A stretch of 64,000 bases of DNA from Escherichia coli (GCF_016026235.1 NZ_CP065613.1); one strand, 5' to 3'. Positions 26,106 to 55,754 are shown, counted from the stretch's first letter. Notes: generated from the sequence alone by a model not told the origin. Program-made: numbers and translations.

Positions 26106-27272
26106 ATGAACTTACATGAATATCAGGCAAAACAACTTTTTGCCCGCTATGGCTTACCAGCACCGGTGGGTTATGCCTGTACTACTCCGCGCGAAGCAGA
26201 AGAAGCCGCTTCAAAAATCGGTGCCGGTCCGTGGGTAGTGAAATGTCAGGTTCACGCTGGTGGCCGCGGTAAAGCGGGCGGTGTGAAAGTTGTAAACAGT
26301 AAAGAAGACATCCGTGCTTTTGCAGAAAACTGGCTGGGCAAGCGTCTGGTAACGTATCAAACAGATGCCAATGGCCAACCGGTTAACCAGATTCTGGTTG
26401 AAGCGGCGACCGATATCGCTAAAGAGCTGTATCTCGGTGCCGTTGTAGACCGTAGTTCCCGTCGTGTGGTCTTTATGGCCTCCACCGAAGGCGGCGTGGA
26501 AATCGAAAAAGTGGCGGAAGAAACTCCGCACCTGATCCACAAAGTTGCGCTTGATCCGCTGACTGGCCCGATGCCGTATCAGGGACGCGAGCTGGCGTTC
26601 AAACTGGGTCTGGAAGGTAAACTGGTTCAGCAGTTCACCAAAATCTTCATGGGCCTGGCGACCATTTTCCTGGAGCGCGACCTGGCGTTGATCGAAATCA
26701 ACCCGCTGGTCATCACCAAACAGGGCGATCTGATTTGCCTCGACGGCAAACTGGGCGCTGATGGCAACGCACTGTTCCGCCAGCCTGATCTGCGCGAAAT
26801 GCGTGACCAGTCGCAGGAAGATCCACGTGAAGCACAGGCTGCACAGTGGGAACTGAACTACGTTGCGCTGGACGGTAACATCGGTTGTATGGTTAACGGC
26901 GCAGGTCTGGCGATGGGTACGATGGACATCGTTAAACTGCACGGCGGCGAACCAGCTAACTTCCTTGACGTTGGCGGCGGCGCAACCAAAGAACGTGTAA
27001 CCGAAGCGTTCAAAATCATCCTCTCTGACGACAAAGTGAAAGCCGTTCTGGTTAACATCTTCGGCGGTATCGTTCGTTGCGACCTGATCGCTGACGGAAT
27101 CATCGGCGCGGTAGCGGAAGTGGGTGTTAACGTACCGGTCGTGGTACGTCTGGAAGGTAACAACGCCGAACTCGGCGCGAAGAAACTGGCTGACAGCGGC
27201 CTGAATATTATTGCAGCAAAAGGTCTGACGGATGCAGCTCAGCAGGTTGTTGCCGCAGTGGAGGGGAAATAA
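26106..27272 (+). CDS. sucC: Succinyl-CoA ligase (ADP-forming) beta subunit
   Basis: 388-aa [66 protein letters not shown]... Confidence 0.97.
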
Positions 27273-28141
27273 TGTCCATTTTAATTGATAAAAACACCAA
27301 GGTTATCTGCCAGGGCTTTACCGGTAGCCAGGGGACTTTCCACTCAGAACAGGCTATTGCATACGGCACTAAAATGGTTGGCGGCGTAACCCCAGGTAAA
27401 GGCGGCACCACCCACCTCGGCCTGCCGGTGTTCAACACCGTGCGTGAAGCTGTTGCTGCTACTGGCGCTACCGCTTCTGTTATCTACGTACCAGCACCGT
27501 TCTGCAAAGACTCCATTCTGGAAGCCATCGATGCAGGCATCAAACTGATTATCACCATCACTGAAGGCATCCCGACGCTGGATATGCTGACCGTGAAAGT
27601 GAAGCTGGATGAAGCAGGCGTTCGTATGATCGGCCCGAACTGCCCAGGCGTTATCACTCCGGGTGAATGCAAAATCGGTATCCAGCCTGGTCACATTCAC
27701 AAACCGGGTAAAGTGGGTATCGTTTCCCGTTCCGGTACACTGACCTATGAAGCGGTTAAACAGACCACGGATTACGGTTTCGGTCAGTCGACCTGTGTCG
27801 GTATCGGCGGTGACCCGATCCCGGGCTCTAACTTTATCGACATTCTCGAAATGTTCGAAAAAGATCCGCAGACCGAAGCGATCGTGATGATCGGTGAGAT
27901 CGGCGGTAGCGCTGAAGAAGAAGCTGCTGCGTACATCAAAGAGCACGTTACCAAGCCAGTTGTGGGTTACATCGCTGGTGTGACTGCGCCGAAAGGCAAA
28001 CGTATGGGCCACGCGGGTGCCATCATTGCCGGTGGGAAAGGGACTGCGGATGAGAAATTCGCTGCTCTGGAAGCTGCAGGCGTGAAAACCGTTCGCAGCC
28101 TGGCGGATATCGGTGAAGCACTGAAAACTGTTCTGAAATAA
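27272..28141 (+). CDS. sucD: Succinyl-CoA ligase (ADP-forming) alpha subunit
   Basis: 289-aa [48 protein letters not shown]...; start overlaps sucC stop. Confidence 0.97.
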
Positions 28142-28214
28142 ATATCTGTAATAAGAAATAGCCCTCGCCGCTTCCCTCTACAGGAATGGCGAAGGGCTGT
28201 CGGTTTCGACATGG
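28142..28214 (+). ncRNA. sdhX: 5' portion of the sucD 3'-UTR sRNA region (SdhX/RybD), cut off from its terminator by IS1
   Basis: Begins right after the sucD stop and contains the hairpin gccctcgccgcttccctctacaggaatggcgaagggc; in uninterrupted loci this region runs on to the terminator now found at 28994-29018. Assignment rests on my memory of SdhX position, not on a covariance model. Confidence 0.4.
28206..28214. repeat. Left copy of the 9-bp IS1 target-site duplication (tcgacatgg)
   Basis: Identical 9-mer recurs at 28983-28991, immediately flanking both IS1 ends. Confidence 0.85.
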
Positions 28215-28269
28215 GGTAATGCTGCCAACTTACTGATTTAGTGTATGATGGTGATTTTAAGGTGCTTGC

Positions 28270-28545
28270 GTGGCTTCCATTTCCATCAGATGTCCTTCCT
28301 GCTCCGCTACTGAAGGCGTGGTGCGTAACGGCAAAAGCACTGCCGGACATCAGCGCTATCTCTGCTCTCATTGCCGTAAAACATGGCAACTACAGTTCAC
28401 TTACACCGCCTCTCAGCCCGGTACGCACCAGAAAATCATTGATATGGCCATGAATGGCGTCGGATGTCGCGCCAGTGCACGCATTATGGGCGTTGGCCTC
28501 AACACGGTTTTACGTCACTTAAAAAACTCAGGCCGCAGTCGGTAA
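28270..28545 (+). CDS. insA: IS1 InsA (transposition repressor; N-terminal part of the InsAB' transposase)
   Basis: 91-aa [43 protein letters not shown]... (zinc-finger and HTH). Confidence 0.93.
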
Positions 28546-28967
28546 CCTCGCGCATACAACCGGGCAGTGATGTGATTGTCTGCGCTGAAATGGACGAACA
28601 GTGGGGCTACGTCGGTGCTAAATCACGTCAGCGCTGGCTGTTTTACGCGTATGACAGGATACGGAGGACGGTTGTGGCGCACGTCTTCGGTGAACGCACT
28701 CTGGCCACACTGGAGCGTCTTCTGAGCCTGCTGTCGGCCTTTGAGGTCGTGGTATGGATGACGGATGGCTGGCCGCTGTATGAATCACGCCTGAAGGGAA
28801 AGCTGCACGTTATCAGCAAGCGTTACACTCAGCGCATTGAGCGACATAATCTGAATCTGAGACAACATCTGGCAAGGCTGGGACGGAAGTCACTGTCGTT
28901 CTCAAAATCGGTGGAGCTGCATGACAAGGTCATCGGGCATTATCTGAACATAAAACACTATCAGTAA
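28464..28967 (+). CDS. insB: IS1 InsB reading frame (expressed as the InsAB' transposase by -1 frameshift)
   Basis: 167-aa ORF in the -1 frame relative to insA, overlapping it; slippery ttaaaaaactc motif near 28520-28530. Confidence 0.9.
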
Positions 28968-28982
28968 GTTGGAGTCATTACC

Positions 28983-28991
28983 TCGACATGG
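28983..28991. repeat. Right copy of the 9-bp IS1 target-site duplication (tcgacatgg)
   Basis: Identical to 28206-28214. Confidence 0.85.
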
Positions 28992-28993
28992 TT

Positions 28994-29018
28994 GGCCATC
29001 GTATGATGGCCTTTTTTG
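28994..29018. terminator. Native sucD/SdhX intrinsic terminator, now downstream of IS1; bidirectional with mngR
   Basis: Hairpin ggccatcgtatgatggcc followed by TTTTTT; lies 4 nt before the mngR stop on the opposite strand. Confidence 0.7.
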
Positions 29019-29021
29019 TGC

Positions 29022-29744
29022 TTATCGCGATGATTTTCGCTGCGCTATCAGGGTAAATTTATAGTCATCGGTATTAAAAGCGTTGCGGCTATATTCAAAC
29101 ACCCGACCATCAACTAAATATCCACGCGATACTTTTTCAAGAATCGGCTTTGTCTGGCTGATATTAAGCAGACGGCTCATCTCTTCGGTTGGCATCAGAG
29201 GAATGATTTCCTGTTCGCTACGATCGATAACCATCTTCTTCACTTCTTCAATAAAGTGATATTTCGAATTTTCCATGACCTGCCAGGTGAGATCCGGGAA
29301 CAACGCAAGCGGCATCCAGGTTTCTTCCAGCGCCATTGGCTTTTGCTTGCGATAGCGCACGCGCTTCACATGCCACACACGATCCTGCGCGGTGATTTGT
29401 AGCTGTTGCTGAAGAAAATCGTCAGCCGGAATCACTTCAAATATCAGGACTTCACTGTGTGTATCGACGTGACGGTCCGACAGTTTTTCATCAAAACTGG
29501 TTAACTGAAAAATATCGTAATTGACCCGCTCTTCTTTGACGTAAGTCCCGCTGCCCTGAATGCTTTCGAGGATCTGTTGCTCGACTAACTGGCGCAAAGC
29601 CTGACGCACCGTAACCCGGCTGACGCCAAACTCTGTTTGTAATGCCGATTCGGTAGGTAACGCATCGCCAGGTTTAAGCTCGCCACGCGCAATTTGTTCA
29701 CGAATGCGATCGGCAATCTGCCGGTATAAGGGCTTGTGTCCCAT
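29022..29744 (-). CDS. mngR: GntR/HutC-family transcriptional repressor of the mannosyl-D-glycerate operon
   Basis: 240-aa ORF MGHKPLYRQIADRIREQIARGELKPGDALPTESALQTEFGVSRVTVRQALRQL (winged HTH) plus UTRA effector domain. Confidence 0.92.
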   Translation of the reverse strand: MGHKPLYRQIADRIREQIARGELKPGDALPTESALQTEFGVSRVTVRQALRQLVEQQILESIQGSGTYVKEERVNYDIFQLTSFDEKLSDRHVDTHSEVLIFEVIPADDFLQQQLQITAQDRVWHVKRVRYRKQKPMALEETWMPLALFPDLTWQVMENSKYHFIEEVKKMVIDRSEQEIIPLMPTEEMSRLLNISQTKPILEKVSRGYLVDGRVFEYSRNAFNTDDYKFTLIAQRKSSR

Positions 29745-44422: not shown

Positions 44423-44498
44423 GGGTCGTTAGCTCAGTTGGTAGAGCAGTTGACTTTTAATCAATTGGTCGCAGGTTCGAATCCTGCACGACCCACCA
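44423..44498 (+). tRNA. lysT: tRNA-Lys (anticodon UUU)
   Basis: gggtcgttagctcagttggtagagcagttgacttttaatcaattggtcgcaggttcgaatcctgcacgacccacca; cloverleaf with TTT anticodon and encoded CCA. Confidence 0.95.
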
Positions 44499-44526
44499 AT
44501 CGCTAAGGTGGAAGCGGTAGTAAAAC

Positions 44527-44598
44527 GTGAAGGATAACGTTGCATCAGCAACGGCCCGAAGGGCGAGACGAAGTCGAGTCATCCTGCACGACCCACCA
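44527..44598 (+). repeat. Spacer repeat copy 1 ending in a pseudo-tRNA-Lys 3' end
   Basis: gtgaaggataacgttgcatcagcaacggcccgaagggcgagacgaagtcgagtcATCCTGCACGACCCACCA; last 18 nt identical to the 3' end of tRNA-Lys. Confidence 0.8.
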
Positions 44599-44633
44599 CT
44601 AACATAGTTAGTTGTAGTATCCAGCGTAGTATT

Positions 44634-44709
44634 GGGTGATTAGCTCAGCTGGGAGAGCACCTCCCTTACAAGGAGGGGGTCGGCGGTTCGATCCCGTCAT
44701 CACCCACCA
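44634..44709 (+). tRNA. valT: tRNA-Val (anticodon UAC)
   Basis: gggtgattagctcagctgggagagcacctcccttacaaggagggggtcggcggttcgatcccgtcatcacccacca. Confidence 0.95.
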
Positions 44710-44711
44710 CC

Positions 44712-44787
44712 GGGTCGTTAGCTCAGTTGGTAGAGCAGTTGACTTTTAATCAATTGGTCGCAGGTTCGAATCCTGCACGACCCACCA
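44712..44787 (+). tRNA. lysW: tRNA-Lys (anticodon UUU)
   Basis: Identical to the lysT sequence; starts 2 nt after valT. Confidence 0.95.
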
Positions 44788-44815
44788 GTTTTAGCATCGA
44801 AGACAGATGTTAAGC

Positions 44816-44885
44816 GTGTAGGATAACGTTGCGTCAGCAACGGCCCGTAGGGCGAGCGAAGCGAGTCATCCTGCACGACCCACCA
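44816..44885 (+). repeat. Spacer repeat copy 2 ending in a pseudo-tRNA-Lys 3' end
   Basis: Near-identical to copy 1, with a few substitutions. Confidence 0.8.
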
Positions 44886-44936
44886 CTAATTACGGTGGGT
44901 TCGGTGGAAGTAGTTTGTAGTATCCAGCGCAGTATC

Positions 44937-45012
44937 GGGTGATTAGCTCAGCTGGGAGAGCACCTCCCTTACAAGGAGGGGGTCGGCGGTTCGATCCCGT
45001 CATCACCCACCA
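44937..45012 (+). tRNA. valZ: tRNA-Val (anticodon UAC)
   Basis: Identical to the valT sequence. Confidence 0.95.
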
Positions 45013-45015
45013 CTC

Positions 45016-45091
45016 GGGTCGTTAGCTCAGTTGGTAGAGCAGTTGACTTTTAATCAATTGGTCGCAGGTTCGAATCCTGCACGACCCACCA
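45016..45091 (+). tRNA. lysY: tRNA-Lys (anticodon UUU)
   Basis: Identical to the lysT sequence; 3 nt after valZ. Confidence 0.95.
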
Positions 45092-45119
45092 ATTTTAACA
45101 TCAAACTCAGATGTTAAGC

Positions 45120-45189
45120 GTGAAGGATAACGTTGCGCCAGCAACGGCCCGAAGGGCGAGCGAAGCGAGTCATCCTGCACGACCCACCA
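45120..45189 (+). repeat. Spacer repeat copy 3 ending in a pseudo-tRNA-Lys 3' end
   Basis: Near-identical to copies 1 and 2. Confidence 0.8.
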
Positions 45190-45237
45190 ATCTTAAAGAT
45201 TGGCCCCGAGTAAAAATCTTTCAGGTAACACCCGTAT

Positions 45238-45313
45238 GGGTCGTTAGCTCAGTTGGTAGAGCAGTTGACTTTTAATCAATTGGTCGCAGGTTCGAATCCT
45301 GCACGACCCACCA
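45238..45313 (+). tRNA. lysZ: tRNA-Lys (anticodon UUU)
   Basis: Identical to the lysT sequence. Confidence 0.95.
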
Positions 45314-45346
45314 TCCTGAATGATTAAAGCAGCATAATCCCGCAAG

Positions 45347-45422
45347 GGGTCGTTAGCTCAGTTGGTAGAGCAGTTGACTTTTAATCAATTGGTCGCAGGT
45401 TCGAATCCTGCACGACCCACCA
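45347..45422 (+). tRNA. lysQ: tRNA-Lys (anticodon UUU)
   Basis: Identical to the lysT sequence; last gene of the array. Confidence 0.95.
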
Positions 45423-45424
45423 AT

Positions 45425-45455
45425 GTAAAAAAGCGCCCTAAAGGCGCTTTTTTGC
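45425..45455 (+). terminator. Rho-independent terminator of the tRNA array
   Basis: aaaaaagcgccctaaaggcgcttttttg, a perfect hairpin with T-tract 3 nt after lysQ. Confidence 0.8.
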
Positions 45456-45609
45456 TATTCAGGCATCTCTCAATTTCAATTCTTGACCCTGATGACATAC
45501 TCCGCGCTTGCTGCGTAAACAACTTTACGTCGGAGGAATAAGACGCAAAGTGTGGCATTCGGCATCTCATACGTAATTCGAGTGACTTTTCCCCACCATT
45601 CGACTATCT

Positions 45610-45627
45610 TGTTTAGCATATAAAACA
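45610..45627. promoter_or_regulatory. Probable NadR operator upstream of nadA
   Basis: TGTTTA-gcatat-AAAACA, close to the TGTTTA-N6-TAAACA palindrome, about 75 nt upstream of the nadA start. Confidence 0.5.
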
Positions 45628-45699
45628 AATCACGCCGATAACAGCGAATATCACGCTAATGTCGGTTTTAACGTTAAGCCTGTAAAACGAGATGGTAAG

Positions 45700-46743
45700 A
45701 TGAGCGTGATGTTTGATCCAGACACGGCGATTTATCCTTTCCCCCCGAAGCCGACGCCGTTAAGCATTGATGAAAAAGCGTATTACCGCGAGAAGATAAA
45801 ACGTCTGCTAAAAGAACGTAATGCGGTGATGGTTGCCCACTACTATACCGATCCCGAAATTCAACAACTGGCAGAAGAAACCGGTGGCTGTATTTCTGAT
45901 TCTTTGGAAATGGCGCGCTTCGGTGCAAAGCATCCCGCCTCTACGTTGTTAGTCGCTGGGGTGAGATTTATGGGAGAAACCGCCAAAATTCTCAGTCCGG
46001 AAAAAACAATTCTGATGCCGACACTTCAGGCTGAATGTTCACTGGATCTCGGCTGCCCTGTTGAAGAATTTAACGCATTTTGCGATGCCCATCCCGATCA
46101 TACTGTCGTCGTCTACGCCAACACTTCTGCTGCGGTAAAAGCGCGGGCAGATTGGGTGGTAACTTCAAGCATTGCCGTCGAACTTATTGATCATCTGGAT
46201 AGTTTGGGTGAAAAAATCATCTGGGCACCCGACAAACATCTGGGGCGTTACGTGCAAAAACAGACGGGCGCAGACATTTTATGCTGGCAGGGTGCCTGCA
46301 TTGTGCATGATGAATTTAAGACTCAGGCGTTAACCCGCTTGCAAGAAGAATACCCGGATGCTGCCATACTGGTGCATCCAGAATCACCACAAGCTATTGT
46401 CGATATGGCGGATGCGGTCGGTTCCACCAGTCAACTGATCGCTGCTGCGAAAACATTGCCACATCAGAGGCTTATTGTGGCAACCGATCGGGGTATTTTC
46501 TACAAAATGCAGCAGGCGGTGCCAGATAAAGAGTTACTGGAAGCACCAACCGCGGGTGAGGGCGCAACCTGCCGCAGCTGCGCGCATTGTCCGTGGATGG
46601 CCATGAATGGCCTTCAGGCTATCGCAGAGGCATTAGAACAGGAAGGAAGTAATCACGAGGTTCATGTCGATGAGAGGCTGCGAGAGAGGGCGCTGGTGCC
46701 GCTCAATCGTATGCTGGATTTTGCGGCTACACTACGTGGATAA
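45700..46743 (+). CDS. nadA: Quinolinate synthase A
   Basis: 347-aa [66 protein letters not shown]... Confidence 0.96.
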
Positions 46744-53603: not shown

Positions 53604-54650
53604 TTACACTCCGGATTCGCGAAAATGGATATCGCTGACTGCGCGCAAACGCTCTGCTGCCTGTTCTGCCGTCAGATCACGCTGGGTTTCTGCCAGCATT
53701 TCATAACCGACCATAAATTTACGTACGGTGGCGGAGCGCAACAGAGGCGGATAAAAGTGCGCGTGCAGCTGCCAGTGTTGATTCTCTTCGCCATTAAATG
53801 GCGCGCCGTGCCAGCCCATAGAGTAGGGGAAGGAGCACTGGAAGAGGTTGTCATAACGACTGGTCAGCTTTTTCAACGCCAGCGCCAGATCGCTGCGCTG
53901 GGCGTCGGTCAAATCGGTGATCCGTAAAACGTGGGCTTTGGGCAGCAGTAGCGTTTCGAACGGCCAGGCAGCCCAGTAAGGCACTACGGCTAACCAGTGT
54001 TCGGTTTCAACAACGGTACGGCTACCGTCTGCCAGCTCGCGCTGAACATAATCCACCAGCATTGGTGATTTCTGCTCGGCAAAATATTCTTTTTGCAGGC
54101 GGTCTTCGCGCTCAGCTTCGTTAGGCAGGAAGCTATTTGCCCAAACCTGTCCGTGCGGATGCGGGTTAGAGCAGCCCATCGCCGCGCCTTTATTTTCAAA
54201 GACCTGCACCCATGGGTACGTTTTCCCCAGTTCTGCGGTTTGCTCCTGCCAGGTTTTGACGATTTCCGTCAATGCCGCAACACTGAGCTCTGGCAGCGTT
54301 TTACTGTGATCCGGTGAAAAGCAGATCACCCGGCTGGTACCGCGCGCGCTCTGGCAACGCATCAAAGGATCGTTGCTTTCTGGCGCATCTGGCGTGTCAG
54401 ACATCAAGGCCGCAAAGTCATTAGTGAAAACGTAAGTCCCGGTGTAATCGGGGTTTTTATCGCCTGTCACCCGCACATTACCTGCGCAGAGGAAGCAATC
54501 TGGATCGTGCGCAGGTAACACCTGTTTGGCTGGCGTTTCCTGCGCCCCCTGCCAGGGGCGCTTAGCGCGGTGCGGTGAAACCAGAATCCATTGCCCGGTG
54601 AGCGGGTTGTAGCGGCGATGTGGATGATCAACGGGATTAAATTGCGTCAT
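53604..54650 (-). CDS. galT: Galactose-1-phosphate uridylyltransferase; its own ATG and RBS are intact but the upstream galE frame runs into it
   Basis: C-terminal 348 residues of the 704-aa track ORF 53604..55718, beginning [35 protein letters not shown]... with the HPH active-site motif. Confidence 0.9.
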
Positions 54651-54659
54651 GGTCGTTCC

Positions 54660-55676
54660 TTTATCGGGATATCCCTGTGGATGGCGTGACTGCCAGTGCC
54701 AGGTGTCCTGCGCCATTTCATCGAGTGTGCGCGTTACGCGCCAGTTCAGTTCACGGTCGGCTTTGCTGGCGTCCGCCCAGTAGGCCGGAAGGTCGCCCTC
54801 GCGACGCGGTGCAAAATGATAGTTAACCGGTTTGCCGCAGGCTTTGCTGAAGGCATTAACCACGTCCAGCACGCTGCTGCCTACGCCAGCACCGAGGTTG
54901 TAGATGTGTACGCCTGGCTTGTTCGCCAGTTTTTCCATCGCCACGACGTGACCGTCCGCCAGATCCATTACGTGGATGTAATCGCGTACGCCAGTACCGT
55001 CTTCGGTCGGATAATCGTTACCAAAAATCGCCAGCGAGTCGCGACGGCCTACAGCAACCTGGGCGATGTATGGCATCAGGTTATTCGGAATGCCTTGCGG
55101 ATCTTCGCCCATATCGCCCGACGGATGCGCGCCAACCGGGTTGAAGTAGCGCAGCAGGGCAATGCTCCAGTCCGGCTGGGCTTTTTGCAGATCGGTGAGG
55201 ATCTGTTCCACCATCAGCTTGCTTTTGCCGTAAGGGCTTTGCGGTGTGCCGGTCGGGAAGCTTTCAACGTATGGAATTTTGGGCTGATCGCCATAAACGG
55301 TGGCGGAGGAGCTAAAAATAAAGTTTTTGACGTTAGCGGCGCGCATGGCGCTAATCAGGCGCAGAGTACCGTTGACATTGTTGTCGTAATATTCCAGCGG
55401 TTTTTGTACCGATTCGCCAACGGCTTTCAGCCCGGCGAAGTGGATCACGGTGTCGATAGCGTGATCGTGCAGGATCTCGGTCATCAACGCTTCGTTACGG
55501 ATATCGCCTTCAACAAACGTTGGATGTTTGCCGCCTAAACGCTCGATAACAGGCAGTACGCTGCGCTTACTGTTACAGAGGTTATCAAGAATGATGACAT
55601 CATGACCGTTTTGCAGTAATTGCACACAGGTATGACTTCCAATGTAACCGCTACCACCGGTGACCAGAACTCTCAT
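54660..55676 (-). CDS. galE: UDP-glucose 4-epimerase reading frame with no stop codon (continues in frame into galT)
   Basis: Residues 15-352 of the 704-aa track [24 protein letters not shown] (NAD Rossmann motif) to ...[13 protein letters not shown], then KGTT, then the GalT start Met; the expected stop position 54660-54662 is a sense codon (AAA). Confidence 0.85.
55642..55657. promoter_or_regulatory. gal internal operator OI (GalR/GalS site) inside the galE coding region
   Basis: Minus-strand GTGGTAGCGGTTACAT about 20-35 nt into galE. Confidence 0.7.
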
Positions 55677-55754
55677 AATTCGCTCCATTAGGCTTATGGT
55701 ATGAAATAACCATAGCATAACAAAGATGCGAAAAGTGTGACATGGAATAAATTA

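Follow-up and report, generated by a model that had tools for sequence, protein, structure and literature searches.

The window considered here is a stretch of 64,000 nucleotides of Escherichia coli DNA (GCF_016026235.1, NZ_CP065613.1), in which a complete IS1 element lies between sucD, the last gene of the sdhCDAB-sucABCD operon, and the convergent gene mngR. The interval is occupied in K-12 MG1655 by sdhX (b4764), the gene of the Hfq-dependent, RNase E-processed small RNA SdhX (RybD), which is annotated as 101 nt directly after the sucD stop codon. The features of the interval, with positions counted from the first letter of the window, are as follows.

27272-28141, + strand: sucD, a 289-aa ORF colinear with K-12, the stop codon ending at 28141
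28142-28214, + strand: left part of sdhX, nt 1-73, identical to nt 1-73 of K-12 sdhX
28206-28214, + strand: left copy of the target-site duplication, TCGACATGG (SdhX nt 65-73), from the repeat finder
28215-28982, + strand: IS1, IS1F type, complete, 768 bp, 99.35% identity to K-12 IS1F
28215-28237, + strand: left terminal inverted repeat (IRL), from the repeat finder, overlapping the promoter-like CTGCCA-16-TATGAT at 28222-28249
28270-28545, + strand: insA, 91 aa, GTG start, intact in the ORF list
28521-28527, + strand: A6C motif of the -1 programmed frameshift, AAAAAAC, read directly from the sequence
28270-28967, + strand: insAB' transposase frames, 232 aa after the -1 frameshift, intact as a reconstructed fusion
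28960-28982, + strand: right terminal inverted repeat (IRR), from the repeat finder
28983-28991, + strand: right copy of the target-site duplication, TCGACATGG, forming with 28992 the seed copy UCGACAUGGU
28992-29019, + strand: right part of sdhX, nt 74-101, identical to K-12
28994-29011, + strand: terminator stem-loop, followed by a T6 run at 29012-29017
29022-29744, - strand: mngR, intact and convergent, its stop codon 2 nt past the sdhX 3' end

Structure and type of the IS1 element

A complete 768-bp IS1 with intact insA and insB and both inverted repeats had been described in a first-pass annotation of this DNA, and the repeat finder, the open reading frames and the domain models all bear this description out. 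Members of the IS1 family are about 768 bp long and carry imperfect terminal inverted repeats of about 23 bp starting GGTRATG; in the window element the repeats comprise 23 nt that are 87% complementary, and both ends start GGTAATG. Its first bases, from 28215, are GGTAATGCTGCCAACTTACTG and its last bases, up to 28982, are AGTTGGAGTCATTACC, after which the sequence continues with TCGACATGGTTGGCCATCGTATGATGGCCTTTTTTGT. The IRL, with its promoter-like sequence, is the end in which the IS1 transposase promoter is known to lie. The InsB frame is present as a 167-aa ORF ending at 28967, and the 232-aa InsAB' fusion scored 245 bits against NCBIfam NF033558 (cutoff 100), with the Pfam domains Zn_ribbon_InsA, HTH_Tnp_IS1 and DDE_Tnp_IS1 all full-length (DDE_Tnp_IS1 over model positions 1-131 of 131). 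Length, inverted repeats, the InsAB' frameshift, a 9-bp target duplication and isoform identity all agree, at the level of the sequence, with the IS1 family.

Based on its identity to the K-12 isoforms, the element belongs to the IS1F type, since the value of 99.35% for IS1F compares with 91.3% for IS1A and 91.0% for IS1B, so that it is 9% diverged from the two elements that are commonly studied. It resembles K-12 IS1F in its 768 bp, its imperfect repeats of about 23 bp, its insA and insB' joined by an A6C frameshift and its 9-bp duplication; it differs in that insB of K-12 IS1F is annotated as a pseudogene, whereas the InsAB' frames in the window are intact. An IS1 copy of the genome FDAARGOS_943 is 99.87% identical to it (1 nt apart). 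No other IS1 copy is present within the 64-kb window.

Division of sdhX and duplication of its seed

The flanks of the element are colinear with both K-12 and FDAARGOS_943, and their overlap of 9 bp in subject coordinates is the target duplication. The two 9-mers, reported earlier as perfect repeats at 28206-28214 and 28983-28991, are 100% identical, for which the chance at fixed positions is 4^-9, or about 4e-6; target duplications in the IS1 family measure 9 bp, occasionally 8 bp. It had also been proposed that removal of the element and one repeat copy would restore a continuous sucD 3'UTR, and the window without the IS1 and one copy is in fact exactly identical to K-12 sdhX. An IS1F-type IS1 has transposed into the sucD 3'UTR, between sdhX nt 73 and 74, and is oriented with the operon inside the sRNA region, as the first-pass annotation had it, within the annotated gene b4764. 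SdhX nt 1 corresponds to 28142, the first base past the sucD stop codon, and nt 101 to 29019; the region limits proposed previously (28142-29020) stand as coordinates, but the annotated sdhX ends at 29019 and not at 29020.

The insertion had been placed between the body of SdhX and its terminator. It does lie upstream of the terminator, but alignment to the IS-free references K-12 and FDAARGOS_943 puts it inside the seed of the sRNA, which is UUCGACAUGGU, nt 64-74, and directly precedes the terminator stem-loop (Miyakoshi et al., 2019; PMC6393394). It was reported that the core CGACAU of SdhX pairs with ackA codons 1-2, and that RNase E cleavage in a UUU tract gives rise to the 38-nt SdhX2, which is sufficient for ackA repression (PMC6393394). 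In E. coli, G62 of SdhX is reported to be needed for fdoG and a variable region around C34 for katG (PMC6393394, PMC9438474). The ackA start region of K-12 is ttCCATGTCGAgt, in which positions -2 to +7 read CCATGTCGA; the target duplication is the exact complement of ackA -2 to +7 and comprises 9 of the 11 published seed nucleotides. The seed core, nt 65-73 (UCGACAUGG), was duplicated by the transposition, and each half of the split sdhX retains a seed copy.

The left piece contains the long stem-loop, the katG region around C34, G62, the RNase E UUU site at 28204-28206 and a seed copy, UUCGACAUGG (28205-28214), which holds 10 of the 11 seed nucleotides and adjoins the IS1. The right seed copy, UCGACAUGGU, likewise has 10 of 11 seed nucleotides and adjoins the terminator. 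From 28983 to 29019 the right piece corresponds to 37 of the 38 nt of SdhX2, terminator included, the first U of SdhX2 being replaced at the junction by the last base of IS1, a C, which adds a G-C pair with ackA G8. The terminator-proximal fragment that read-out from IS1 had been suggested to yield would accordingly be a near-complete SdhX2 rather than a bare terminator. The operon and the 5' part of the sRNA had been described as cut off from their terminator, which agrees with nt 1-73 lying left of the element and nt 74-101 right of it; the alternative raised with that description, an SdhX located entirely upstream or entirely downstream of the element, does not apply, as sdhX extends on both sides.

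Several attributes of sdhX are found at the locus, namely its position after the sucD stop codon, a seed beside the terminator and complementarity to ackA. The segment of about 101 nt, from which RNase E normally yields the ~101-nt and 38-nt forms of the sRNA, is no longer continuous, and the distance from the RNase E site to the terminator has gained 777 bases. Compared with the known SdhX, therefore, the locus is the same and the 101-nt sequence is identical once IS1 and one repeat are removed, whereas in the window IS1 breaks the gene after nt 73, ahead of nt 74, and the seed is present twice. A scan with Rfam 15 gave no match in the window and none in the intact K-12 sdhX locus either, and the latter result indicates that Rfam is without a usable SdhX model.

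Occurrence and age of the allele

Of 5426 complete E. coli genomes, 5425 gave an unbroken gene in a search with the 101-nt sdhX, and a search with the 1-kb region found IS1 inside sdhX in no complete E. coli genome. The four best-covering genomes of the region search, in which IS1 stands beside sucD, were set aside as cases of IS1A or IS1B past an intact sdhX terminator with the mngR region replaced. In NZ_CP178438.1 (1723-2490) an IS1A or IS1B lies about 80 bp beyond the intact terminator and mngR-mngAB is replaced by other DNA; in NZ_OZ546984.1 (2031-2798) the corresponding distance is about 390 bp, and mngR-mngAB is replaced as well.

The window is 96.8-99.2% identical to K-12. Its closest complete relative is FDAARGOS_943, with 99.93-99.96% identity over 27 kb (18 SNPs), and the two have an internal stop in ybgQ in common. 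The sdhX site of FDAARGOS_943 is empty, which implies that the insertion is later than the split from this genome and agrees with the earlier suggestion that it is recent. FDAARGOS_943 gave at least 40 matches in the 1-kb region search, as befits an IS1-rich lineage, and there is evidence that the IS1F type has recently been moving in this lineage.

Other features of the two genomes were recorded in passing. FDAARGOS_943 (NZ_CP065615.1) carries an IS1F-type copy in the opposite orientation, with a 9-bp duplication, between gltA and a ybgD-like fimbrial gene; this site corresponds to about 16007-16015 of the window, some 12 kb from sdhX, where the window has no IS1. The ybgQ fimbrial usher gene of the window (12810-15311, - strand) is split into ORFs of 501 and 325 aa, compared with the 815-aa K-12 gene, and the annotation of FDAARGOS_943 lists ybgQ as a pseudogene containing an internal stop. 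The 155-kb IncFII plasmid of FDAARGOS_943 (NZ_CP065616.1) carries phoC, a truncated gene for an NEL-type (IpaH-like) E3 ubiquitin ligase, ISSfl3, ISSso6 and many IS fragments; these features have a Shigella/EIEC-like flavour and are a hint of a possible enteroinvasive-type E. coli lineage with expanded IS content. Within the window, the galE stop codon TAA is changed to AAA (about 54660-54662), giving an in-frame galE-galT ORF of 704 aa (53604-55718, - strand); the 61-mer at this joint was matched in 5390 complete E. coli genomes, in none of them identically and at best with 1 mismatch, and the joining looks like a lineage-specific GalE-GalT fusion. Positions 1-2047 have no counterpart in the K-12 stretch that was fetched (the ybfQ/ybfL/ybfD H-repeat region upstream of ybgA). 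The lysT-valT cluster (44423-45700) has the same seven tRNAs as K-12, with the spacer of the last two tRNA-Lys genes about 100 bp and the tRNA-nadA spacer about 155 bp shorter than in K-12.

Three further public records, all labelled E. coli, were reached by exact matching of the MngB allele; each agrees with the window at 100% identity across 12-16.6 kb, including the junctions.

GCA_031665325.1: 3.45-Mb contig with sucD, IS1 and mngR; full insertion
GCA_008180225.1: 16.5-kb contig that starts inside the right end of IS1
SRR23545530: Logan contig of raw reads that starts 28 nt inside the IRR

At least three independent records with the allele were thus verified, and 21 further contigs were grouped by shared neighbours. 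The presence of an identical allele in at least three other E. coli records indicates that it is inherited in a clone. The MngR protein, in an exact look-up, proved to be too common an allele to be informative on the lineage, and all 10 loci among the matches listed were empty sites. The exact left and right junctions had 0 matches in JGI metagenome contigs. Among GTDB species representatives, the left junction gave one match, in Oceanobacillus, which was rejected as a chance 23-mer in an unrelated coding sequence (BLAST); by our own estimate, about 0.07 chance matches to this 23-mer are expected in the scan. The literature search found no paper on an IS within sdhX or the sucD-mngR interval, nor on the assembly accessions.

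These records also bear on the question of whether the IS1 copy was simply misplaced by the assembler. This lineage has multiple IS1 copies, and misassembly is often due to repeats, but the perfect 9-bp duplication fits the reconstructed empty site, the identical full insertion recurs in the 3.45-Mb contig of an independent assembly, and the identical right junction stands at the ends of two more independent contigs, one of them a Logan contig built from raw reads. We consider such an artefact extremely improbable.

Transcription across the insertion and SdhX output

The hairpin and T6 run at 28994-29017 form the only intrinsic-terminator-like site between 27800 and 29400 on either strand, from which it follows that + strand transcripts surviving passage through IS1 would end at the SdhX terminator. 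The terminator hairpin is present in every predicted fold of the right junction. On the + strand past the insA stop codon the GC skew profile is G-rich, with no C-rich stretch and no obvious Rho-loading region. A promoter facing outward from the right end of IS1 was considered and rejected: the sole + strand candidate (28822-28850) has 9 of 12 matches, and the 3 candidate promoter sites are no better than the 1.4 +/- 1.1 of shuffled sequences, so this candidate was not relied on. The predicted accessibility of the seed is 0.25-0.72 in chimeric RNAs, which overlaps the 0.52-0.65 of the wild type. Neither the promoter scan, nor the skew profile, nor the calculations of duplex formation and seed accessibility, all of them weak probes, told the competing models apart.

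Based on this arrangement, we think it probable that SdhX output is strongly reduced or rewired and no longer tightly coupled to transcription of the TCA operon, possibly with a residual chimeric IS1-SdhX2 RNA. The left piece remains on the sdh-suc transcript and has lost the terminator and the U-tail, which give the sRNA its 3' end and Hfq handle. The right piece, whose distance from the sucD stop codon has grown by 777 bp, depends on polymerases that traverse IS1 or initiate within it. Most operon transcripts would then deliver no RNA with both seed and terminator, and SdhX output would fall. Regulation of katG and fdoG should be lost because the nucleotides required for it lie on the terminator-less left side. 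Repression of ackA would be weakened, perhaps not abolished; it may persist at a low level because transcripts that read through IS1 or initiate in it would end at the SdhX terminator and carry the pairing core. TCA-operon transcription running into insA-insB' may also raise the activity of this IS1 copy, and rare precise excision to the wild type would be possible via the 9-bp repeats. What speaks against the reduced-output reading is that the right module keeps everything that has been published as sufficient for ackA repression, so ackA control might change little overall should read-through prove efficient. The lack of an obvious Rho-loading region, the overlap in predicted seed accessibility and the persistence of the allele in a repeatedly sampled clone, which indicates that it is not strongly deleterious, count against this reading as well.

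IS1 insertions are classically polar on downstream transcription, which argues against the proposal that function is largely retained, with transcription crossing IS1, a trimmed SdhX2-like RNA, possibly with some IRR sequence of IS1 at its 5' end, repressing ackA, and only the E. coli-specific regulation of katG and fdoG being lost. This proposal would draw on the strong sdh-suc promoters and the IS1 promoter as sources of transcription, and on trimming by RNase E or other nucleases. It is favoured by the right junction, which keeps UCGACAUGGU and the terminator and adds the pairing of the IS1 C with ackA G8, by the lack of an intrinsic terminator within IS1 and by the terminator hairpin in all folds. 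Read-through into other IS1 copies has been shown experimentally, and a lacZ fusion at the IRR revealed that transcription gets to the right end of IS1 (PMC12428005). Moreover, SdhX2 alone, an upstream-extended chimera with a foreign leader (ArcZ::SdhX2) and the unprocessed form produced by a processing-site mutant are all active when expressed, the chimera and the mutant repressing AckA (PMC6393394); these assays relied, however, on overexpression. Further points against retained function are that the native RNase E UUU site is 777 nt upstream of the right seed, that no clear RN|WUU-type site is seen at the new junction, and that seed accessibility is predicted to be lower, 0.25-0.33, in chimeras of 120-300 nt. 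On balance, large-scale retention of function seems rather unlikely.

The engineered SdhX variants of Miyakoshi et al. (2019; PMC6393394), namely delta-49, G41C, UUU->CCC and ArcZ::SdhX2, offer a close comparison. The right module resembles ArcZ::SdhX2 in that a foreign upstream RNA is joined to the seed and terminator, and the operon-linked part resembles delta-49 in that the terminator is no longer joined to the native 3'UTR. In contrast to these constructs, the leader in the window is a 768-nt insertion sequence with a weak autorepressed promoter and a translated ORF, and at the fusion point both the native RNase E site and the first U of the seed are lost.

It may also be asked whether the insertion acts mainly on its neighbours, either by destabilising sucCD mRNA or lowering SucD, through loss of the terminator next to the operon, or by turning IS1 into a hyperactive donor regulated with the TCA cycle, through operon transcription feeding insAB'. 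In Salmonella, deletion of the whole sucD 3'UTR including the terminator was reported, as data not shown, to lower SucD and to impair growth on acetate (PMC6393394), but in the window the long 3'UTR stem-loop is kept to the left of IS1, as are the RNase E sites at which processing sets the 3' end of the operon mRNA. With regard to the element itself, host transcription entering co-oriented IS1 copies increases insAB' transcription and transposition, and IS1 transposition falls when upstream transcription is blocked (PMC12428005); the lineage is IS1-rich, and FDAARGOS_943 has a nearby copy that differs by 1 nt. Against this stands the finding of Machida (1983), in the form in which it is cited in PMC12428005, that read-through represses IS1 cointegration. 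A main effect on the neighbours is, in our judgement, quite unlikely.

A more speculative consequence of the duplication is a chimeric IS1-SdhX RNA in which the transposase mRNA and the operon read-through would gain a working sRNA module as their 3' end, given the full ackA-pairing seed rebuilt beside the Hfq-binding terminator. We regard this as unlikely. If it is true, SdhX would be converted by the insertion rather than abolished, RNase E cutting at the retained UUU site would leave the second seed copy at the 5' end, control of ackA and of acetyl phosphate would be coupled to IS1 and TCA transcription, and Hfq would be brought onto a transposase mRNA, which would amount to a natural capture of an sRNA 3' module by a mobile element.

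The sdhX::IS1 locus is a new natural allele. Both of its components are textbook entities, altered expression through an IS in a functional 3'UTR was already known, and no new mechanism or system is indicated. A close precedent is rpiRc of S. aureus, where an IS in a functional 3'UTR likewise brings about regulatory variation at the strain level (Menendez-Gil et al., 2020; PMC7049690); the rpiRc 3'UTR is a cis-acting regulator of the mRNA that carries it, whereas the sucD 3'UTR is also the gene of a trans-acting sRNA, the seed of which is kept by the duplication. Through SdhX, transcription of the TCA-cycle genes is tied to the metabolism of acetate and acetyl phosphate, and the sRNA varies hardly at all within E. 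coli. The clonally inherited sdhX::IS1, together with the near-isogenic wild type FDAARGOS_943, is a ready natural experiment that could show the importance of SdhX outside the laboratory, whether a minimal seed-plus-terminator module works under foreign transcription, and what effect read-through from a highly expressed operon has on an IS1 copy. It also illustrates that a 9-bp duplication can keep a short seed intact while the gene around it breaks.
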